Part shown: piece by piece, positions 1,332-49,895 of the stretch | How positions within the stretch are numbered: position 1 is the stretch's first letter | How the letters are laid out: each line of letters begins with the position of its first letter | Source of the DNA: a virus | Virus record (IMG/VR): IMGVR_UViG_3300045988_177506 | DNA length: 49,895 nucleotides | Reading direction: 5' to 3' (one strand) | The notes under the pieces: generated by a model | Database searches by the model: none | What the model saw: only the letters and a program-made list of their open reading frames with translations | What the model was told of the DNA's origin: nothing | Program-made: the position numbers and the translations under genes

Positions 1332-1502
1332 TTACTCCAATTTCATAATCACGATTTCGCCATTTCTTTCAACCGCCGCCAAAGTGTCGTTTACTGTAAA
1401 CCCTACACTTTCTACAATTTTTTTAGGAAGTCTGACAATATAGCTTGCTGTCTTGACTTTCCCCGTATCCTTATCGACACGTATCTGTACCGTCATTTTC
1501 AT
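1332..1502 (-). CDS. AbrB/MazE/SpoVT-type swapped-hairpin DNA-binding protein (55 aa), first gene of the early operon
   Basis: Translation MKMTVQIRVDKDTGKVKTASYIVRLPKKIVESVGFTVNDTLAAVERNGEIVIMKLE. RBS AAGGAG lies 10 nt upstream. Below the 60-aa ORF-track cutoff. Sits directly downstream of the consensus promoter at 1536..1564. Confidence 0.65.
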   Translation of the reverse strand: MKMTVQIRVDKDTGKVKTASYIVRLPKKIVESVGFTVNDTLAAVERNGEIVIMKLE

Positions 1503-1535
1503 AAGTTATCACGCTCCTTGTTTGTTTATGCCCCT

Positions 1536-1564
1536 ATTATAACACCGATTTCGTACGAAGTCAA
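1536..1564 (-). promoter_or_regulatory. Sigma-70-type promoter TTGACT-17-TATAAT driving the early (-) operon
   Basis: rc reads TTGACTtcgtacgaaatcggtgtTATAAT, about 25 nt upstream of the AbrB-like RBS. Confidence 0.65.
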
Positions 1565-1577
1565 GCGTTTTCGTAAC

Positions 1578-1619
1578 ATTTTGCAAAAATTATTTTTTAT
1601 TTTGCGAAAATTATTTTTC
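1578..1619. promoter_or_regulatory. Tandem 21-bp direct repeat (ATTTTGCaAAAATTATTTTTt x2) between the divergent promoters; candidate operator or UP element
   Basis: attttgcaaaaattatttttt / attttgcgaaaattatttttc, read directly. Confidence 0.55.
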
Positions 1620-1638
1620 AAAAACCATCTTAAAACAC

Positions 1639-1667
1639 TTGACAACCTCTTTTTTATGTGTTATAAT
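1639..1667 (+). promoter_or_regulatory. Perfect sigma-70 consensus promoter TTGACA-17-TATAAT (+ strand)
   Basis: ttgacaacctcttttttatgtgttataat. No ORF downstream. Confidence 0.7.
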
Positions 1668-1674
1668 AGCCACG

Positions 1675-2525
1675 AAATGTAGGGCTTCACCTACCGCGCA
1701 ATATGTTTTGACCTAAAGTATTGCCATTTCCTAACTGCATATTTGGATGTCAAAGTTCTCGCATATGTTTCTGGGTCTCTCGAAAGAGAAAACATATCGG
1801 GGGCTTTTTCTTATACTTTGACATTAAATCGCGAAAGTTGTCCTGCGTTAAAAGGTACAACGGGTGGCTCTGAGTTCAAACACGTGAAGAGCAACTGCAA
1901 AGTGGGGTAAACGCTATGATACCACAATAATCTCGACGGCGGGCTTGGTGAACTGATTTTAGATAGGCAGTGGAGCGCAGGGCAGTTCTTGTGCGACGAT
2001 ACTGTGTGTAGCTGAAATGCTACACGTATGCGTGTTTGACAAGGGCTTGTTGGGTAGAAACTTCAACGACGGACGATGAAGACGTCTTTATTCTCTTGTG
2101 TGTACTTGTTCCTCTTTTGCAGGGATAGGTATGCACAAGAGCGTGAGTGAGTATGTTCTTAACTCTGAACGATGTACCATGTACTAATAAACTAAGTACA
2201 GAGTATATAGAGTATAAGATTACTACTAAGCATATCGGTAATATAACATGGAATACTCGTATAATTACGAATAAATAAGCAATAGAAGAAGAAATAGTTT
2301 ACATATACTAAACAAATAGAGATAGTATACAAAGAAAAATAAAAAACACGTGTCCGAGGTAACAGATGGTAAGCAATGGACACAGATAGAAGTGAAACAG
2401 TTAGTTCGCTTATTAACTCTTAAAGACAGAGCTGCTTCATATGTTTTATTCATATTTATCCTTTACAAGAGGGGTGACCCGTTCAGTTTTCGATGATTTA
2501 CTGGGCGGGTTGCTTCTTTTTTATT
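1675..2525 (+). ncRNA. Candidate large non-coding RNA (about 850 nt), running from promoter to terminator with no ORF
   Basis: No ORF of 60 aa or more in any frame across 1503..2805, apart from two low-complexity antisense ORFs. Bounded by the consensus promoter and an intrinsic terminator. Contains hairpins (e.g. catatgttt...aaacatatc, cttcaacgacggacgatgaag) and an AT-rich low-complexity segment. Confidence 0.45.
2477..2525 (+). terminator. Rho-independent terminator ending the ORF-free + strand unit
   Basis: Stem ACCCGTTCAG/CTGGGCGGGT (10 bp including two G-U pairs) followed by TGCTTCTTTTTTATT. Confidence 0.6.
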
Positions 2526-2761
2526 GGTAGAAAACCCACATATTGCGATAACAACAAATAAGCTTTCTTCCAAAGAAATGCGATCTCGCTCTTAAAAAGC
2601 TAAAAATTAGCAATAATTTCGTGAAATTTGCAAGTCCCGTAAACAATATCTATTCAGCATTGCGATATTAGTGCGAGATTTAAGCTGTGTTGCGTTTTAT
2701 CGTTTCGGTAGGGTAAATTTACGTTTGATAAACAATTCCCGTTAAAATTGAAATTTTAAGG

Positions 2762-2799
2762 CAAAAAAAGACAGCCCAACTCGTGAGAGAAGAGCTGTC
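2762..2799 (-). terminator. Rho-independent terminator at the 3' end of the late (-) operon
   Basis: rc reads GACAGCtcttctctcacgagttggGCTGTCttttttt, immediately after the stop of the 2805..3170 gene. Confidence 0.65.
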
Positions 2800-2804
2800 A
2801 AGCG

Positions 2805-3170
2805 TTAGACTATCCAAAACAGGTCGGCTTTTTCGCTACGGCAATCGAATATATCATAGAGGACACCATATTCGACCACGGTCAAATGCCCGTCCGTCCG
2901 GATAAGTATAACGTCTTCAGGGAAAAGTTTGCCCAAGTCTGCAACAGAAAGATTGGTCGCTACACGTTGCTTTAAGCCAAACACGTTGGTAAGCAAGTGA
3001 TTGTAACAACACGCCGTAAGTTCGTCACACTCAAAGAGATCGGCAATCAGTTCAAGCTTATGTTTAATAAGATTGTAGTCTAATTTAGTGGCGCGACTAA
3101 TTGCACGGCATACGCAATCGTTTTCAATATCGCCGACTGGGTTTGCGTTGTAAAAACGGTAGTCAATCAT
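2805..3170 (-). CDS. Hypothetical protein (122 aa; Cys/His-containing, possible papain-like fold)
   Basis: Internal start MIDYRF chosen to abut the upstream gene stop at 3163. Last gene before the terminator. Confidence 0.5.
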   Translation of the reverse strand: MIDYRFYNANPVGDIENDCVCRAISRATKLDYNLIKHKLELIADLFECDELTACCYNHLLTNVFGLKQRVATNLSVADLGKLFPEDVILIRTDGHLTVVEYGVLYDIFDCRSEKADLFWIV

Positions 3171-4231: not shown

Positions 4232-4846
4232 TTAAAGAACAGAGCCGCAAGTCCCGGTAGCGCCACAAGCTGTGTAGCAGCAGTTCGGATTAGGAACTAC
4301 ATACGCCGGCTGTGCTTGCGGACGGAGAGCCGATACGAGGTAAGTGTTCTGTGCTTCTTGGCTTGCTTTCAGACGGAGCGCGTTAATTTCGTTCTGCTGA
4401 GCGGCAATCTGTGCGTTCTTGTCTTCAATGCGATTTGCAACAATTTCGTCGTGAAGTGCGCGATAGTTTGCATTCTGACTATCAATCACATCACGGAAGC
4501 CCGTGCAAAGCGACTGCTGGATAGCGTTGGTCTGCATTGCAATCGCATACTGCGTGTCTTTTATTGCGCTCTGAGTTTTGCAACAACAGTCGGCAAGTTG
4601 AGAGCCTATGCCGTTTATAGCCGAACGAGTTTCATAGCCGCCGGCGGTAATTGCACTGGTAACACCCGCAAAGCCGTTGAGCATACCGGTGTTCATAGCA
4701 TAGAAACCATCGCAAATGCCATTGTTTACATTGTCAAGTTTGCGCTCAATGCTGGCGAAGTCGCTCGTAAGAACATATCCATCCATTACGCCGCCGCCCT
4801 GGCTTCCACCGTAGCCATATCCGCCTCTGCCCCAACCAAAAATCAA
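4232..4846 (-). CDS. Gly-rich / coiled-coil / Cys-rich C-terminus hypothetical protein (non-ATG start, TTG)
   Basis: GRGGYGYGGSQGGG N-terminus and a C-terminal NCCYTACGATGTCGSVL. The in-frame upstream codons encode the hydrophobic AIILFALIFGW but are closed by a stop. Confidence 0.45.
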   Translation of the reverse strand: MIFGWGRGGYGYGGSQGGGVMDGYVLTSDFASIERKLDNVNNGICDGFYAMNTGMLNGFAGVTSAITAGGYETRSAINGIGSQLADCCCKTQSAIKDTQYAIAMQTNAIQQSLCTGFRDVIDSQNANYRALHDEIVANRIEDKNAQIAAQQNEINALRLKASQEAQNTYLVSALRPQAQPAYVVPNPNCCYTACGATGTCGSVL

Positions 4847-28073: not shown

Positions 28074-28149
28074 CTATTTTTGCAACATTTATTACACCAA
28101 TTTTTGCGATACACCCTCCACAACATTACCAAAATCACATCCTACAAAT

Positions 28150-29180
28150 ATCACTTTTGTCCATATTTTTAAGCCCCAATGTTCGTTTTGTCCATCACCG
28201 CAAATGCCAATATTTGGGAATTTAAACCCCCGCCACGCCACTTTTTATTTCTCTCTATTGCTTTTTCACTACCCATCTCCTATTCCTGTAGCTCTATCTC
28301 CAGATTACTAATCCCATAGCTTATCATATCCCTCTTGCTATTCATAACTACAGCACAGTCCCTCTTATTAACTCTCAAGACTTCTACTATCTACCCAATC
28401 CCCCATCCCCCCTTTCCCTTTGTTTTGTATTGCCTATTTATCTTGCTATTATTGCTTATTTCTTGTGCTATTTGGTATATCCCCAGCTATAGTACTATAA
28501 TATTTCTCTTGGCTTAGTGTAATTATTTTTTTTGTGTATATTCTTGGGAGTATACTATGAGAATTTTTTTGTGTATTTTTTGAGAGAGTAATAGCATAGT
28601 ACCCAAAAATGCAAAAAATAGGGGCGGGCGGGCATAAAAAACGCACCCACAACCACAGCCACGAACAGCAGTGCCCAAATAACGCCGAAAAATAGCCCTA
28701 ATTTCAGCGTAATATCTTTGGTAGGGTAAATTCACATTTGAAATATTAAAACGAAATACGGGGCAAATTTAAGCGTTTTAAGGGCATACGGGGAAAGGCA
28801 GACAACGGAGCGGGCGGCAAAACGTATTGCATAATATATATTATATATCATTACACGCACGAATAAATAATAATTACGCTTGTATAAATAACAAGACGAT
28901 TTACGACCAAATTGAACACGCGCATATATCTATATTTACACGCTATTATTATATCATTACAAGCGTATAAGAAATCTTTACGCCAATATTTGAGAAATTA
29001 ACCGCGGGGGGGGGTATTTCATAAGCTTGCCAAGATTTACAGGCGTATAGCTTTATAATCTACCGCAAACAATACGCACACGACGGAGCGGGCAACTTTT
29101 ACAAATGCCAATATTTGAGAAAATGCCAATATTTGGGAAACATACACCGCCGGCAAAATGTTCGTTTTGTCCATCTTTTT
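28150..29180. repeat. Iteron-like repeat cluster: GCCAATATTTG(G/A)GAA x4 (28205, 28982, 29105, 29124) and (G/C)TTTTGTCCAT x3 (28153, 28187, 29165); candidate origin or packaging region
   Basis: Repeats read directly. The last two GCCAATATTTG copies are tandem (atgccaatatttgagaaaatgccaatatttgggaaa). Confidence 0.5.
28260..28420. other. Strongly CT-rich (+ strand) low-complexity tract
   Basis: ctcccatctcctattcctgtagctctatctcc...caatcccccatcccccctttcccttt. Confidence 0.5.
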
Positions 29181-29343
29181 AGATATCAATTTTATCTATA
29201 TTTTTATCGATAAATCCATATCAATAAGAACAACCAATATATGCAAGACGCACAGAAAAAGCACGCGGAACTATGCAGGGCGCACAGCGGAAAACCAAAA
29301 AACAAAAAATCGTAAAAAATCTTAAAAAATCATACAAAAACGC

Positions 29344-29372
29344 TTGACAAGCGGGGGAAGGTGTGATATAAT
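29344..29372 (+). promoter_or_regulatory. Perfect sigma-70 consensus promoter TTGACA-17-TATAAT for the + strand cassette
   Basis: ttgacaagcgggggaaggtgtgatataat. The 5' leader carries a hairpin AGCTTG...CAAGCT. Confidence 0.7.
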
Positions 29373-29439
29373 GAAGGTGAGCTTGAAAGGAAACGCGAGG
29401 CGCGGCAAGCTTAAAAACAAAAAAACGGAGAAAACAAAA

Positions 29440-30084
29440 ATGAAAAAATTAAACGAAATCAGAGAAGAAAGACAGGCGAACGCGGCAAGGGTCGCAGAGC
29501 TTAACGAAAAAATTGACAGAGCAGTGAACAGCTGGCGGACGAAGGAGCCGTTTCCGGAAGACTTCGCGGCGTTGGGCGCCGAACTCGCGACGGCAAAGAA
29601 AATCGGGGCGATTTTGAAAAACAATTATAACAACCGACTCGCGGCGGAGGTGCTGCCGGCGTTGGTGGAAATCCTGAAAAAATACAACGGCAAGAAGTAC
29701 GGCGAAAAGACGAAGGAAAAGATGGGCGAAGAGTTCAAAGCGATGACGGGTTGCGGCATTTGGTTAGAGCGTTATGTGTTCTCGCAAAAAAGCAATCACG
29801 CCCATATATACGAGATGCGCGACGGATACAGACACGGCGAAGAAATCGAGTTTTTCACAAATTCAAATAACATCATCAGCGAAGACAACGTTATACAGGC
29901 GCAACCGGCGGAAGCTTTCAGACTTTACGACTTCGGCGAATATATCGAAACACCGGCGGAAAGGGTCGCACAGCTTGCGGAAAAGAAAAAAGAGCTTGAC
30001 GAGATGCGGGCGGCGTTCAATAAAGCGGTAGACGCTTACAACGCTTTGACCGTCAACGGCATTGACCACGAAAAAAGAGCATAA
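29440..30084 (+). CDS. Hypothetical protein (first gene of the GC-rich + cassette)
   Basis: Start MKKLNEIREE with GGAG 9 nt upstream. GC content is visibly higher than in the surrounding genome. Confidence 0.6.
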   Translation: MKKLNEIREERQANAARVAELNEKIDRAVNSWRTKEPFPEDFAALGAELATAKKIGAILKNNYNNRLAAEVLPALVEILKKYNGKKYGEKTKEKMGEEFKAMTGCGIWLERYVFSQKSNHAHIYEMRDGYRHGEEIEFFTNSNNIISEDNVIQAQPAEAFRLYDFGEYIETPAERVAQLAEKKKELDEMRAAFNKAVDAYNALTVNGIDHEKRA

Positions 30085-30098
30085 AGGAGGGCAAAACA

Positions 30099-30836
30099 AT
30101 GAAATTTTACAAAACTTCTAACGGGCTGGAACTTCTGACAGACTGGGCGGGCGATTGCCACGACTGCAAAACGTACAACAAGAACCAACAGAGAGCAAGA
30201 GAGGCGGCGGGGAAGCTTTTACATTCCGGCAATTTGATTTTTGAACACGGAAACACCCCGCGCAATTCTTCCGAATTTGTGGCGAATATGCCTTACACCT
30301 CGGCAAGCGACTTTGCGGCGTTGTGGGCGACTTGTGCATATTGTGCCTATCAGATTAAAAACAGACAAACGAAGCTTTATTTGGTGGGTATTGCGTTAAC
30401 CGATGCCCAGGCGGTCAGCGTGTGGAGAGATTGCGAAAGCAATTATATTTTTGAAATTGTCGGCGAAGAACCGAAGGCGCAGCCGATTATATTAAACACA
30501 GATAGCGACATCGCAAGCGTGGCGGTTGACTGCGGAAACGGCAATATTATTACTTACGAAAAAGCAAACGGAGCGGACGGGGACACCAGCGTTATAATTT
30601 TCGCAAGCTACGACGCATATATTAAATATTGCGCACGTCGAAATATTGACACTTTGCACGACGTGAAAAACATTGCAACGGCGAGATTTAACGGGGCGAA
30701 TATATGCCAATCTGATTGCGCCGGGCTGCACGGTGAAAAAGAGATCCCGGACGCCGAAAAGGTTTACACGCTTTCGGGCAGATTTGCTATAAAAGCTAAA
30801 GATGATGCCGTATATTTTGTAAAAATTGAGGAGTAA
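30099..30836 (+). CDS. Hypothetical Cys-containing protein (second gene of the + cassette)
   Basis: RBS AAGGAGG. ORF. Confidence 0.6.
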   Translation: MKFYKTSNGLELLTDWAGDCHDCKTYNKNQQRAREAAGKLLHSGNLIFEHGNTPRNSSEFVANMPYTSASDFAALWATCAYCAYQIKNRQTKLYLVGIALTDAQAVSVWRDCESNYIFEIVGEEPKAQPIILNTDSDIASVAVDCGNGNIITYEKANGADGDTSVIIFASYDAYIKYCARRNIDTLHDVKNIATARFNGANICQSDCAGLHGEKEIPDAEKVYTLSGRFAIKAKDDAVYFVKIEE

Positions 30837-30839
30837 AAA

Positions 30840-31883
30840 ATGGTTGAAAACGTTTACAACGGCGAAGACATAGCCGAATTTTTAACCGGCTGCGGGTGCG
30901 GGTGCGAGTTTCGCGCTCGTACCTTTTCGCCCTCTTCGGTTGTGTATTTCTTTGATTTAATAAACCCAATGACCACGGCGGCAAAAATGCGGGCGGCGGT
31001 TCGGGCGGTCGCCTTAACAATTCACAAAACGGCGATTTTAACAGATGGCGGGAAGTATAACTTTGCCATCGCGATCCCACGCGAAAACCGAAGCTTCCCC
31101 ACCTTTTACGACGTAGCAAACACCGGGCAGACATCCCCAAAAGATGGAGATATAACCTTCGGGATAAAAGAGGACGGGGAAAGGCTTACGGCAAACATCA
31201 ACAGCCTTCCGCACCTGCTTATCAGCGGAGCGAGCGGCAGCGGCAAAAGCGTTTTTATGCATTCGGTCATTGCGTCGCTTTCGTGTTTCTCTGCCCCTTA
31301 TAAATGCGATTTTGTGATGATTGACATGAAAGGCACGGAGCTGACACCCTGGCACAATTCCCGCCGGCTTATTCGTCCAGTGATAACGAACGCACGCGAG
31401 GCAGTCCAAGCCCTTGGCGACGTCGAAGCAACAATGAACAATCGATATAAAAAGCTCATAGCCCGCGGAAAAATTGACAACTCGGCGGGCGATTTCCCCC
31501 GGCTGGTGGTTTTCGTCGACGAACTGGCAGATCTCATGCTTTACAAGAAAAAGGAAGCAACAAGGTTTTTAACCAGCATAGCACAAAAAGGCAGGGCGGC
31601 GGGGGTTCATTTGATACTCGCAACGCAGCGCCCCTCGGTGGATGTTGTAACGGGACTAATTAAAGCGAACATTCCGGCGCGCGCAGTTTTCTCCACTACT
31701 TCCGCAATCGATAGCATGGTAATGCTCGGACACAAAGGAGCGGAACAGCTCAAAGGCAAGGGCGATAGCCTGGTGAAACTCCCCAACGGTACCGAATACC
31801 ACGTACAGGCACCAAATTTTACGGCGCAAATGATATACAACGTCACCCACCCGCGCCGAACACTCCCGGACATTTTCAACTAA
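30840..31883 (+). CDS. FtsK/SpoIIIE-family P-loop DNA translocase-like ATPase
   Basis: Walker A GASGSGKS, Walker B VVFVDELADL, and LATQRPSVDVVTGLIKANIPARAVFS, a motif typical of FtsK/SpoIIIE/TraB-type motors. Confidence 0.7.
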   Translation: MVENVYNGEDIAEFLTGCGCGCEFRARTFSPSSVVYFFDLINPMTTAAKMRAAVRAVALTIHKTAILTDGGKYNFAIAIPRENRSFPTFYDVANTGQTSPKDGDITFGIKEDGERLTANINSLPHLLISGASGSGKSVFMHSVIASLSCFSAPYKCDFVMIDMKGTELTPWHNSRRLIRPVITNAREAVQALGDVEATMNNRYKKLIARGKIDNSAGDFPRLVVFVDELADLMLYKKKEATRFLTSIAQKGRAAGVHLILATQRPSVDVVTGLIKANIPARAVFSTTSAIDSMVMLGHKGAEQLKGKGDSLVKLPNGTEYHVQAPNFTAQMIYNVTHPRRTLPDIFN

Positions 31884-32433: not shown

Positions 32434-32695
32434 TTAGTTTTATCTCCTCGGCGCAATACTCTACGCCTAAAAAATCAAGTTGCGCGATCCGGCGGTCATA
32501 CAGCCATTTTATAGCTTGTTGGCGCCCGTATTCCGTAAATGGGAAATAACAAGTTTCGCCGCAACAAAAAGCACGCAAAAAATGCGGCTCGTTGATTGAG
32601 TATACTTCAATGGCGAAGTTGTAAGATATATCGCCGTACCGATGATATGGTTTCAAGTCCGATAACGGCGGAATGTTAATCGATTTTATTTTCAT
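32426..32695 (-). CDS. Hypothetical protein
   Basis: ORF. Confidence 0.45.
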   Translation of the reverse strand: MKIKSINIPPLSDLKPYHRYGDISYNFAIEVYSINEPHFLRAFCCGETCYFPFTEYGRQQAIKWLYDRRIAQLDFLGVEYCAEEIKLND

Positions 32696-32909
32696 TTATT
32701 TTCAGTCCTTGTTGGTCAAGTATAACACAATCACCCACTGTTGGCAAATAGTCCAATTCGTAAGCCCATAGTTCTTCTTGCGTAAGTTGGCGGTCGTAAA
32801 TTAGTATGTCGTAATATTTGCCAGTTGGGTCATCTAAACGCAAGATAAACCCATTGGGTTGGCATCCTATCGAACAACCACGCAAACGCATACCGTAAAA
32901 ATATTTCAT
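32676..32909 (-). CDS. Hypothetical protein
   Basis: ORF. Confidence 0.45.
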   Translation of the reverse strand: MKYFYGMRLRGCSIGCQPNGFILRLDDPTGKYYDILIYDRQLTQEELWAYELDYLPTVGDCVILDQQGLKINENKID

Positions 32910-35503: not shown

Positions 35504-36199
35504 TTATAAATCAAATATCGAACCTTGACTTTTCACGTCGTTAAGCCATTTTTTGCCTTTTTCAAATATATGCTTATCTTTCTCGCAAGTTATAAAATGT
35601 CGATTGCTCTTTGCACAAGCAATGGCAAGAGAAAAGCTTCCCCCAAACGGATCCAAAATTACATCACCCTCTTTCGTGTAAAAATTCAATAGTTTATACC
35701 ACAACTGCGTTGGCTTTTGCGTTGGATGAAAACGTAAATCGGGGTGTTTTTTGTCTTCTTGTAGCATCCCGTTATACATATAGTTAAAAACACGAGCAAC
35801 ACCTTGGCTACACCAAGCAAGTTCACAATCGGCGAAATCATTTCTGTCGCGTTTATGCGGCAAACGCTTATCCCACACAATCCAACTTTTAGTTGGGGGC
35901 AAAATGTCCGTGTAATAATTCCCGCCAAATATAATTTGGTTTGTCGAAGTGCTAAATATCAAATCGAAATATTCATTGGTGAGACGGTCACTGTCCCAAT
36001 CTGCTACACCGACATAATCACGTTTCGCTGCTTTGGCATTTGATTTTTCAGGTTTATGTAAAGTAAATGTCATTTTACCGATGTCCAATCCATACGGGGG
36101 ATCTGTAATACACCAATCGGCTTTTATGCCCGTTTTTTGCATTTCAAGTAGCAACTCTTTGTAATCACAATTATATGCTTTATCAATTTCAATCTCCAT
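35504..36199 (-). CDS. DNA methyltransferase, beta-class N6-adenine/N4-cytosine (DPPY)
   Basis: Motif IV TDPPYG, then motif I DPFGGSFSLAIA C-terminal to it (beta-class order). Confidence 0.75.
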   Translation of the reverse strand: MEIEIDKAYNCDYKELLLEMQKTGIKADWCITDPPYGLDIGKMTFTLHKPEKSNAKAAKRDYVGVADWDSDRLTNEYFDLIFSTSTNQIIFGGNYYTDILPPTKSWIVWDKRLPHKRDRNDFADCELAWCSQGVARVFNYMYNGMLQEDKKHPDLRFHPTQKPTQLWYKLLNFYTKEGDVILDPFGGSFSLAIACAKSNRHFITCEKDKHIFEKGKKWLNDVKSQGSIFDL

Positions 36200-44932: not shown

Positions 44933-45691
44933 CTAATAATCGAACAATGAAATTTGCCCTTTTACACCGTTTAGCCAATTTGTGCCTGCAACATATTCAG
45001 CATGGTCAAGTTCAAATCCAATATAATCGCGTTTTAGGCGATAGGCGGCAACCGCCGTCGAGCAACTCCCCGCGAACGGGTCAAGTATCAAATCGCCTTC
45101 TTTGGTGTGTTGATTGATAATTTGCGACAAAAGATTTGTCGGTTTTTGGTTTTGGTGTATTTGTTGTTTTCCCCCCACTCTTGGGAAGTGCCATATATCC
45201 GCCAACCGCGGCATATTAGGTTGAAACGGGGCGCGCCCTTTATTTGCATAAATGATAAACTCATAACGCTTGCCATATTGTGCATCCAAATCGCCCGCGG
45301 TGTGATTTCCTTTATCCCATACGATAAGATTTTTTACCGTGAAAAATTTGTCTACCTCGGACTTAAAAAAATCCACCTTATCCGAGCCACAAAACATATA
45401 AAGCGGCGTATTGTCTTTCATTACGTCATACAATAGCGGCATAATGTCGATTATGAGTTGCGGGTTGTCGTCGTTTTGTATAGCCTTGCAAAACTTATGA
45501 GATTTGTCTTTCCTATATGAGGTTCTATAATTGATAAGATAAGGCGGGTCAGTGATTACACAATCAACGAAAACTTCACTTCGTATCATATTACGAATAC
45601 CGTCAAGACAATCCATGTTGTAGATATGATTTCTTTCTATCTTCAATCCCTGCAATTCCCTCAAATCTTCTTTGGTTCGCTTTTCTGACAT
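44933..45691 (-). CDS. DNA methyltransferase, beta-class N6A/N4C (DPPY)
   Basis: VITDPPYLINY (motif IV), then LDPFAGSCSTAVAA (motif I). Confidence 0.75.
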   Translation of the reverse strand: MSEKRTKEDLRELQGLKIERNHIYNMDCLDGIRNMIRSEVFVDCVITDPPYLINYRTSYRKDKSHKFCKAIQNDDNPQLIIDIMPLLYDVMKDNTPLYMFCGSDKVDFFKSEVDKFFTVKNLIVWDKGNHTAGDLDAQYGKRYEFIIYANKGRAPFQPNMPRLADIWHFPRVGGKQQIHQNQKPTNLLSQIINQHTKEGDLILDPFAGSCSTAVAAYRLKRDYIGFELDHAEYVAGTNWLNGVKGQISLFDY

Positions 45692-45882
45692 CCTCTCATT
45701 GCCTCCCACACAGCCTCTTCGTCCGAGCAAATCACAAACACGTCACCGTCCTTTTGCTGATATTTTTGATAATACCAACGCTTGACAAACCGCATATCCG
45801 CTATTGCTCGAACAGACAAAACCGTTCTCACTTTATCACCGTTTTTTACAACGACCTTGTATATGTATCGCTTACTCATCAA
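45661..45882 (-). CDS. Hypothetical small protein
   Basis: ORF. Confidence 0.4.
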   Translation of the reverse strand: MMSKRYIYKVVVKNGDKVRTVLSVRAIADMRFVKRWYYQKYQQKDGDVFVICSDEEAVWEAMRGCQKSEPKKI

Positions 45883-46916: not shown

Positions 46917-47471
46917 TTACTCCTTATCCTCAGGGGCTTCGTTGCCCCAGCAGTCCCAGCCTTCTGCATATTGCCGTGCAAACAGTTCTATCCGTGAAAA
47001 ATCACCGCAAAATTCTATTATTTTATCTCGCACAATGTCTGGCTTTTTGCTGTGTTCCTCACGTACGCTTTCGATAATTTGAGAGACTTTGTTTGATACT
47101 TTTGGGGGCTTCCCTTTAACGCCTATTAAACAAACCTCTGCATTAGACTTGGTGTACCACCCTACCCCAAAGAAGTTTGAGCCATTTTTGTTTTTCTTTA
47201 TCCATGTGAACCCTACTGTTTTATATTCAAAACCCCATGCTTTTATCGTATTCAACGCTTCTTGCATTTTGGGGAATGTTGCCCACATAAATAATATCGA
47301 ATTTGGTTTAGCCAATTGTCCTATCGGCAAAGCTTCAATATCCTCTTGTTTCATCGTAGAATAGTGACTGTTCGCTGTGGCTTGGATATTTCCCATGTTG
47401 CGGTATGCCCACGGGGGATCTGCATAGATAATGTCATACTTTTTGTCTGTGTTAAAAATGTCTACTTTCAT
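46917..47471 (-). CDS. MT-A70-family N6-adenine DNA methyltransferase (DPPW)
   Basis: IIYADPPWAY motif. Confidence 0.7.
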   Translation of the reverse strand: MKVDIFNTDKKYDIIYADPPWAYRNMGNIQATANSHYSTMKQEDIEALPIGQLAKPNSILFMWATFPKMQEALNTIKAWGFEYKTVGFTWIKKNKNGSNFFGVGWYTKSNAEVCLIGVKGKPPKVSNKVSQIIESVREEHSKKPDIVRDKIIEFCGDFSRIELFARQYAEGWDCWGNEAPEDKE

Positions 47472-49286: not shown

Positions 49287-49823
49287 TTAAGCCTCCCAAT
49301 TTTTCAAACGTTCAAGATACTTGTCAAACTGACATTTAGGAGCCTTATCCAAATCAATGCAGTCGCATTCTACCGCAATGGCTTTCAATTCAGCATTGGT
49401 TATCCCTGTTTGTTTTTGGATAGCAAGGATCTGCTTTCTGCGAATGTCTTTCAAAGACGGTGCAGGGGCAGGTTCAGCTTTTTCGGCAGTTGTATACTTT
49501 GTTTTATCGTTTTCCCAATAAACATCCGCGCCAATACCCAAATATTTGCACGCATTTCCTAACGCATCGGTTATCGCCATTTTATACGCCTCGTCGCTCG
49601 CATTGAACGTCTTCTTGCTAACGACATAACTGACCATTCTATTCCCGCCAACACCTGTAATCGGCTTACCCCATTCGTCCCCAAATTTTACATACAAATC
49701 AATTTCGGCAAAAGCAAGACGTTCTCCGGTGCTAACTTCTTCTGTCCACAATCTTTTGATTTCATAGTACCACCCAAAGCCACACGCACCAAATTCGCTT
49801 GTAAGCATTTTTACGCGCCACAT
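49287..49823 (-). CDS. Erf-family single-strand annealing protein
   Basis: ITDALGNACKYLGIGADVY matches the Erf motif (cf. P22 Erf SYARKYCLNGLFGIDD). Upstream of Gp157; the gene start lies in the terminal overlap. Confidence 0.55.
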   Translation of the reverse strand: MWRVKMLTSEFGACGFGWYYEIKRLWTEEVSTGERLAFAEIDLYVKFGDEWGKPITGVGGNRMVSYVVSKKTFNASDEAYKMAITDALGNACKYLGIGADVYWENDKTKYTTAEKAEPAPAPSLKDIRRKQILAIQKQTGITNAELKAIAVECDCIDLDKAPKCQFDKYLERLKNWEA

Positions 49824-49895
49824 TGTGTTTATATCCGTCCCCTTAAAACGTCCATTATCAAACGCTTTTAGGGCGTCTGACGGTACGGCACGGAA
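49777..49895. repeat. Second copy of the 119-bp terminal overlap
   Basis: Identical to 1..119. Confidence 0.9.

Follow-up and report, generated by a model that had tools for sequence, protein, structure and literature searches.

Introduction

In bacteria and phages, large RNAs that adopt complex folds are a rarity, and time and again they have been a source of unexpected biochemistry. RNA-only cages and dimers have recently been demonstrated for GOLLD, ROOL and OLE, the functions of which are still unknown. Here we describe a predicted transcription unit of ~850 nt in the phage genome IMGVR_UViG_3300045988_177506 (from IMG/VR), a DNA of 49,895 nt that we refer to, at its full length, as the window. 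On the evidence of its signals, conservation and predicted fold, we are fairly confident that this unit is a genuine gene for a large structured non-coding RNA (ncRNA). GOLLD, one of the closest known RNAs in kind, forms a 14-mer cage.

The unit resembles GOLLD in that both are large phage RNA genes free of open reading frames (ORFs); many GOLLD RNAs, the function of which is unknown, are longer than 800 nt (PMC12286853). Both RNAs also have one conserved and one poorly conserved half. However, the conserved half of GOLLD is at the 3' end (PMC12286853), whereas here it is the 5' ~480 nt that are 92-94% identical between two phage species, and the 3' tail is ~55% identical. In addition, GOLLD is often located near tRNA genes, whereas this genome is tRNA-free, and the unit does not match the GOLLD model in Rfam. 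ROOL is a multi-junction RNA of ~580 nt from phages and prophages of gut and rumen bacteria that is highly expressed and has no known partner protein or function (PMC5737381, PMC12286853). The 5' domain described here, at ~480 nt, is similar to it in size, and this unit, like GOLLD and ROOL, is encoded in a phage. However, there is again no match to the Rfam model and there are no tRNA genes in the genome, and ROOL spans three phyla with few invariant nucleotides, whereas this RNA is nearly invariant and comes from two phage species. Long non-coding transcripts that are abundant and of unknown role have also been seen in phage transcriptomes, for example that of phage K (PMC9241854). Those transcripts were defined by RNA sequencing without a reported conserved structure, whereas the unit described here is defined by conservation and covariation.

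Smaller phage RNAs also invite comparison. The pRNA of phi29, a Firmicutes phage, is an ORF-free, structured RNA of 120-174 nt; its early promoter is strong and constitutive, and it works with a phi29-type packaging ATPase. In contrast, the RNA described here is five times longer, and its phage has a classical large terminase of 628 amino acids (aa). The CI RNA of P4 and the c4 RNA of P1 are ncRNAs from the regulatory or immunity region that substitute for a protein repressor. Those RNAs are <100 nt and work by pairing with complementary phage transcripts, whereas only chance-level complementarity was found here.

Signals that delimit the unit

Nearly all genes of the window are on the - strand. 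The unit is on the + strand, in the largest non-coding gap of the genome (1.3 kb), with the start and promoter of the divergent early operon on its left and the end and terminator of the convergent late operon on its right. It is thus located between two - strand operons, as the original prediction from the sequence had proposed, and it is not an operon leader, because the convergent late-operon end follows downstream after a spacer of 236 nt. A terminated leader of the lambda pR'-6S-tR' type was rejected on similar grounds: no same-strand genes lie downstream, only the spacer and the convergent operon end. The predicted primary transcript is ~850 nt in the window and ~775 nt in a sister species, a phage found through a Gp157 homologue that is 64% identical to that of the window.

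The promoter of the unit matches TTGACA-17-TATAAT exactly, as had been claimed. TTGACA is at 1639-1644 and TATAAT at 1662-1667, and the 17-nt spacer between them carries an extended -10 TG at -15/-14. This is one of six perfect sites in the window. Allowing up to one mismatch, there are 11 TTGACA-N17-TATAAT sites, compared with 0.66 expected from shuffled sequences, and because of this excess we take the matches to be real phage promoters rather than chance occurrences. The phage evidently depends on promoters of the host consensus type. The sister species keeps the -35, the TG and the -10 of the ncRNA promoter, whereas the spacer and the remaining DNA between the two divergent promoters have diverged.

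At its 3' end the unit has a strong intrinsic terminator (dG -28.9 kcal/mol, z -6.6). The terminator and its U-run had been predicted correctly, but not their extent: the hairpin had been placed at 2477..2525 with a 10-bp stem, and the actual stem has 21 pairs and extends from 2467 to 2520. A scan for promoters and terminators missed this hairpin because of its 12-nt loop. Its counterpart in the sister species is a -27 kcal/mol hairpin that precedes the sequence UUCUUUU, and three pairs of the stem have compensatory changes (2477/2510, A-U to C-G; 2478/2509, C-G to U-A; and 2487/2500, U-A to G-C).

Between these signals there is little that could be translated. No + strand ORF of at least 10 aa with a Shine-Dalgarno-like motif is present in 1640-2560, reassignment of TGA, TAG or TAA does not open a long ORF in the unit, and gene callers place no gene in the gap in any of ~20 related contigs. 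The view that ~850 nt are free of a plausible ORF therefore holds, and a conserved protein-coding ORF, which was looked for in the relatives, did not appear.

Conservation within and between species

Contigs of the same phage species are 93.5-100% identical to the window over 1500-2810. In the comparison that we used for divergence within the species (the window and contig L001), the 5' domain differs at 3.9% of positions, the tail at 1.3% and the terminator at 1.7%, compared with 9.7% for third codon positions and 9.3% for the spacer at 2526-2761. Divergence leaps from <2% to 9.3% directly after the U-run of the terminator. Across 11 relatives, ~21% of the alignment columns of the spacer vary; it evolves neutrally and thus marks the 3' limit of the constrained unit.

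The comparison with the sister species sets off the 5' domain more sharply. Positions 1673-2155 are 92% identical between the two species (94% when one hairpin loop is excluded), whereas third codon positions are 34-44% identical in the flanking early genes and 53% identical in the adjoining late gene. The AT-rich tail is ~55% identical, with 78 gapped positions. Since both the tail and the DNA between the promoters have diverged, the conserved island extends from the -10 box to the last hairpin of the 5' domain. The predicted transcript is under purifying selection. Conservation covers almost the entire 5' domain, unpaired nucleotides included, and this near-invariance suggests that the RNA has a compact tertiary fold, that it contacts a partner that evolves slowly, or both.

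The tail has a G+C content of ~0.30 over 2200-2400, in agreement with the AT-rich, low-complexity stretch that had been described. It had been called the core of the unit, however, and it is the part that is least conserved between species; the structured part is 1673-2155. The predicted fold of the tail is not significant (z -1.7). Purines make up 60% of the tail in the window and 51% in the sister species; from 1800 to 2400 the + strand is rich in G and A. The tail also presents a paradox: within the species no other part of the unit is as well conserved (1.3% divergence compared with ~9.5% for neutral positions), and between species no part is less conserved (~55% identity). A species-specific partner, or replacement by recombination, could account for this. 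One contig, L009, has a 30-nt tandem duplication (AACGATGTATCATGTACTAATAAACTAAGT) near window position ~2167, where the tail begins, and changes in tail length are thus evidently tolerated.

The folded 5' domain

The RNAalifold consensus of 17 sequences is a multi-branched 5' domain that contains several multi-stem junctions and is closed by long-range helices (Table 1). When 159 predicted pairs were followed in window coordinates through 21 sequences, 99.9% of the cells were paired. The pairs that vary number 26 of the 159: eight have compensatory double changes, 15 have single changes compatible with G-U pairing, and three are broken, each in one or two sequences. Compensatory pairs in the 5' domain include 1703/1719 and 1880/2035 (both A-U/G-C), 1978/1991 (C-G/U-A) and 2011/2020 (G-C/G-U/A-U). 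Pair 1879/2036, which occurs as A-U, U-A and C-G, is in the helix 1874-1885/2030-2040, the two sides of which are 150 nt apart. When partners were slid by 1-3 columns as a control, 0-1 compensatory pairs were found, compared with four in the 5' domain, and shuffled partners gave values well below those observed. In addition, the GNRA tetraloop at 1782-1785 shifts from GAAA to GCAA.

The covariation fits the + strand only. The + strand has many G-U pairs, the equivalents of which on the - strand would be A-C mismatches. Predicted folding energies have the same polarity: -243.7 kcal/mol (z -5.4) for the whole unit on the + strand and -183.4 kcal/mol (z -2.1) on the - strand, and, for the 5' domain, -153.7 kcal/mol (z -2.8) and -107.9 kcal/mol (z -1.1), respectively. 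The suggestion that the unit is a candidate for a large structured ncRNA is thus supported by a secondary structure that is conserved, with covariation, among its homologues.

Inside the 5' domain, at 1754-1814 on the + strand, a 20-bp hairpin is followed by UUUUUCUU, and an outer helix (1746-1753/1818-1825) encloses both. About 140 nt into the transcript, this arrangement looks like an attenuator or an intrinsic terminator inside the unit, and a short RNA species of ~140 nt might therefore also arise.

Table 1. Positions and strands of features in the window
Feature	Position	Strand	Remarks
AbrB/MazE/SpoVT-fold protein, 56 aa, first gene of early operon	1332..1502	-	Pfam PF04014 recorded for identical protein P0001
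Divergent early promoter	1536..1564	-	TTGACT-17-TGnTATAAT, 11/12 match; ahead of AbrB-like gene and early operon
Three operator-like palindromes between the two -35 boxes	1579..1624	.	Read from sequence; direct repeat D5
ncRNA promoter	1639..1667	+	sigma-70/SigA-type consensus, 12/12 match
Conserved structured 5' domain, ~480 nt	1673..2155	+	Conservation, predicted helices, covariation
5'-terminal hairpin	1679-1694	+	Predicted
Hairpin	1698-1724	+	Predicted
Long-range helix	1727-1735/2049-2058	+	Predicted
Composite hairpin, GNRA loop at 1782-1785	1746-1825	+	Predicted
Long-range helices	1867-1870/2043-2046 and 1874-1885/2030-2040	+	Predicted
Hairpins	1975-1994, 2006-2025, 2061-2081	+	Predicted
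31-bp hairpin	2082-2152	+	Predicted
AT-rich, A-rich tail or linker, ~300 nt	2156..2466	+	Sequence and length vary between species
Terminator of ncRNA unit	2467..2525	+	21-bp stem 2467-2520, 12-nt loop, U-run
Spacer between convergent terminators, 236 nt	2526..2761	.	Neutral-rate evolution
Late-operon terminator	2762..2804	-	Stem 2799-2770, U7 2769-2763; dG -17.9 kcal/mol, z -4.4
Anti-restriction genes	32676-32909, 35504-36199, 44933-45730, 46917-47471		

Relation to known RNA families

Membership in GOLLD, ROOL, HEARO, raiA, the introns or tmRNA, the families named in the original prediction, was not borne out: no Rfam family reaches its gathering threshold anywhere in the window. Relaxing the limit to E<=10 over 1400-3000 gave only chance-level matches to hairpins of the miRNA type and none to GOLLD or ROOL. 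OLE, HEARO, raiA, group I and II introns, RNase P, 6S and tmRNA were all excluded, as none gave a covariance-model match, and ARAGORN found neither a tRNA nor a tmRNA gene across all 49.9 kb. Candidate RNA structures of phages have been catalogued on a large scale (PMC10690425).

Homologues appear to be confined to the two phage species. A blastn search with the "distant" setting against 50,697 GenBank phage records found no match. IMG/VR, the JGI/ENA metagenomes and GTDB were probed with an exact 20-mer from an invariant stretch. The probe recovered a single contig, of the window's own species, from IMG/VR; two own-species contigs and two chance matches in an unrelated protein-coding gene from the JGI/ENA metagenomes; and nothing from the GTDB species-representative genomes. 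About 100 related phage loci, which had been found through the two neighbouring proteins, were searched with an nhmmer profile built from the 5' domain and with a covariance model (R1) for its inner 180 nt, and both recovered only the window itself. Thus no homologue was found outside the two species in GenBank phages, IMG/VR, JGI metagenomes, GTDB genomes or the ~100 related loci. Judged by Rfam and by these sequence searches, the RNA is apparently a new, narrowly distributed class within the large structured phage ncRNAs.

The shared operator region

The ncRNA promoter and the early promoter are divergent, and their extended -10 elements are identical (GTGTTATAATAG, inverted repeat I5). The three operator-like sites that separate their -35 boxes are AT-rich palindromes: TTTTGCAAAA at 1579-1588, TTTTGCGAAAA at 1600-1610 and TTTTTCAAAAA at 1614-1624. 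The sister species is without one of these three copies. The palindromes are candidate sites for a dimeric regulator of both promoters, and the AbrB-like protein is perhaps what binds them. This protein is encoded in a Cro-like position, which makes it a candidate regulator of the switch region; the sister species encodes a 56-aa protein with 50% amino-acid identity at the same place.

Proposed synthesis, fold and mode of action

We favor the explanation that this is a stand-alone large ncRNA gene in a human-gut tailed phage, and we consider it likely, if slightly less so than the existence of the gene itself. Host RNA polymerase would start at ~1673-1675, at the consensus promoter, and stop at ~2520-2525, at the intrinsic terminator. 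The first ~480 nt of the transcript would fold into a multi-branched domain that is closed by 1727-1735/2049-2058 and 1867-1885/2030-2046 and bears peripheral hairpins, and the AT-rich tail of ~300 nt would join this domain to the terminator. One hairpin comes 5 nt into the transcript and the terminator hairpin closes its 3' end; both would shield the RNA from exonucleases and, based on established knowledge of RNA decay in Firmicutes, make it stable.

We postulate that the RNA is transcribed as soon as phage DNA enters the cell, and that the AbrB-like protein, as the first early protein, then acts on the shared operator region and regulates the RNA. We infer immediate-early synthesis and regulation of this kind because a host-type promoter diverges from the early promoter across palindromes that are beside the gene for the AbrB-like protein. 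As for what the RNA does, we can offer only the tentative suggestion that it is an early, folded RNA that acts in trans by binding a factor of the host or the phage. Rather than base-pairing with phage mRNA, it would bind, sequester or scaffold a conserved macromolecule of the host or the phage. This mode of action is favored because conservation in the 5' domain extends to almost all nucleotides, paired or not.

A bolder version, which we consider rather unlikely, is that the RNA is the founding member of a new class of "ornate" phage RNAs, in which the 5' domain works without a dedicated protein and replaces a lysogeny or immunity module as RNA only. By analogy, such an RNA might be a self-assembled particle like GOLLD or ROOL, a ribozyme, or a mimic of a host macromolecule.

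Several observations weigh against a structured ncRNA gene or limit how much can be drawn from its fold. Expression, the RNA ends and any processing are all inferred. The z of -2.8 for the 5' domain alone is modest. The RNA is carried by two closely related phage species only, and covariation is limited to eight pairs; most helices never vary, and much of the fold thus remains a prediction. Moreover, two contigs (L135 and L035) have a sister-type hairpin at 1698-1724 on a background of the window type. Because sister-type states recur in this way, there are fewer independent events than the number of sequences suggests, and several of the sister-type changes may come from a single event or from recombination. 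These phages are also mosaic, and one late gene has 89% third-position identity between the two species, so part of the conservation between species could reflect recent exchange rather than selection. Lastly, a partner protein was not found in the genome in searches with Pfam, PHROGs and PADLOC; the classes looked for were a reverse transcriptase, an RNA ligase, a Cas- or TnpB-like protein and an integrase.

The unit should lend itself to experiments: the gene is single-copy, its promoter and terminator are of the textbook kind, and its conserved domain of ~480 nt is sharply bounded and small enough for chemical probing and cryo-EM. Its position, back to back with the early promoter and in the slot that holds a repressor and an integrase in temperate relatives, could reveal its role during infection.

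Alternative explanations

That slot raises the possibility that the RNA regulates the phage's own early or late transcription, in place of a lysogeny or immunity module and in the manner of the P4 CI or P1 c4 RNA. In temperate relatives (L028-L031, Gp157 54% identical), an integrase and a CI-like HTH_3 repressor occupy the position of the ncRNA in the same orientation, searches with Pfam and PHROGs found neither an integrase nor a repressor in the window genome, and the ncRNA promoter faces away from the early promoter across the operator-like palindromes. Against this, a BLAST search of the unit against the rest of the genome gave only chance-level complementarity, the best match for pairing with a - strand mRNA being 13/13 nt (E ~0.8). 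Furthermore, the known immunity RNAs are <100 nt and work by base-pairing, and an antisense RNA has no need of a near-invariant domain of ~480 nt. We consider an immunity RNA improbable. A different alternative is an origin of replication that is activated or primed by transcription, as in ColE1 RNA II or T4 and T7, with a pre-primer RNA forming an R-loop in an AT-rich unwinding element. The strong promoter is indeed followed, after ~500 nt, by an AT-rich stretch, the + strand is rich in G and A at 1800-2400, the unit is in the genome's largest non-coding gap, and the AT-rich part is conserved between species in base composition only, not in sequence. However, the purine richness of the tail is itself not conserved (60% compared with 51%), and the terminator, which a primer would not need, is strong and has been kept by compensatory changes. 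Control of the ColE1 type requires a promoter for an antisense RNA within the 5' ~110 nt, and there is no promoter-like site on the - strand in 1675-1800; a fork primed here would presumably run head-on against almost every gene; and the repeat listing contains neither iterons nor tandem repeats of the kind found in an origin or a ToxI-like array. An origin is thus, in our view, very unlikely.

We give a similarly slim chance to the idea that the RNA has no function of its own, and that strong convergent transcription and back-to-back terminators serve to insulate the early region from late read-through on a circular or concatemeric template, the conserved island being the product of recent recombination between the two phage species. 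The unit exactly fills the place where the late operon has ended and the early operon has yet to start, with terminators face to face, and in these mosaic phages identity differs by module. But insulation does not require 480 nt of near-invariant sequence, and the limits of the island are the -10 box on one side and the last hairpin on the other. Substitutions in it keep the structure, even in a helix with strands 150 nt apart, and constraint is seen within the species as well (3.9% compared with 9.5%). The least credible alternative is that the unit encodes one or more small proteins. ORFs do exist, for example at 1743-1910 (+, TTG start, 55 aa, the longest on this strand), 2350-2496 (+, GTG start, 48 aa) and 2453-2265 (-, 62 aa); the last of these has AGGA 5 nt ahead of its ATG, and a frame of ~45 codons over 1775-1910 is open in both species. 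Yet ribosome-binding sites are absent from all + strand ORFs. In the sister species the 55-aa ORF starts differently and is interrupted by a 1-nt indel, and all three codon positions have changed to a similar degree, with no excess at the third. The - strand ORF has no promoter, is frameshifted in L005, has no counterpart in the sister species, and changes mostly at second codon positions. Coding would also leave the covarying pairs unexplained.

Other features of the phage genome and its relatives

The window is a complete, circularly permuted tailed-phage genome of ~49.8 kb. Its two ends (~1-119 and ~49777-49895) align to the same ~119 bp of a 50,005-bp relative, and because the ends overlap in this way we take it to be a complete assembly of a circular or terminally redundant genome. 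Tailed-phage hallmarks include a terminase, a tape-measure protein and Gp157. The early operon starts at ~1500 and runs leftward on the - strand across the window ends; its products are the AbrB-like protein, a zinc-ribbon protein, a Sipho_Gp157-like protein, an exonuclease-like protein, several DNA methyltransferases, an HNH endonuclease and a DnaB-like helicase. The late operon, also on the - strand, runs from ~27.9 kb (terminase) down to 2805. The sister species has the same order as the window: the late-operon end, a gene-free gap of ~1.24 kb, the 56-aa gene and the early operon. In more distant relatives, found through the neighbouring 125-aa late protein (L002, L014, L016 and L019), the gap is wholly absent.

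Identical or near-identical contigs come from human-gut metagenomes, and the phage lineage is present in many such assemblies; ERZ28572386, ERR13898783 and SRR17382073 are among the metagenome samples in which the phage occurs. An identical AbrB-like protein is found in 187 blocks of the assembly index, and the Gp157 homologue that led to the sister species in 68. The large terminase shares only ~21% identity with Clostridia phage terminases, and it identified no close or related prophage in the GTDB species-representative genomes. Firmicutes, to whose phages the original prediction had compared the unit, are only putative hosts. No cultured relative or host was found among GenBank phage records or GTDB genomes, or by terminase comparison.

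A second stand-alone unit is present at 28073-27913 on the - strand. It has a perfect TTGACA-17-TATAAT promoter (28073-28045), followed by ~125 nt without a credible ORF, and it ends in a terminator with an 8-bp GC-rich stem and a U-run (27944-27923). Directly downstream of it is another perfect promoter (27903-27875), which leads into a 58-aa gene, itself preceded by a good ribosome-binding site, and into the terminase operon. This unit could be a small RNA or a terminated late-gene leader similar to lambda 6S. Next to it, 1.27 kb of DNA with tiny ORFs only (28074-29343) is located between two outward-facing perfect promoters (28073 on the - strand and 29344 on the + strand), and this region may hold a cos or pac site, an origin, or more non-coding features.

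The genome has a single + strand gene cassette (29344-31883), which contains three genes. The third encodes an FtsK/SpoIIIE/HerA-like ATPase that also matches models of the defence systems SspH and mad8, and the cassette may be a phage-borne defence or exclusion module. The anti-restriction repertoire is marked: it consists of a DarA_C-like protein, two N6/N4 DNA methylases and an MT-A70 methyltransferase (Table 1). Lastly, in a late gene of 204 aa, the stretch 4251-4500 has 43 differences in 250 nt from a relative that is 96% identical, many of them at codon positions 1 and 2. Diversifying selection on a determinant of host range or receptor binding may explain this divergence hot spot.

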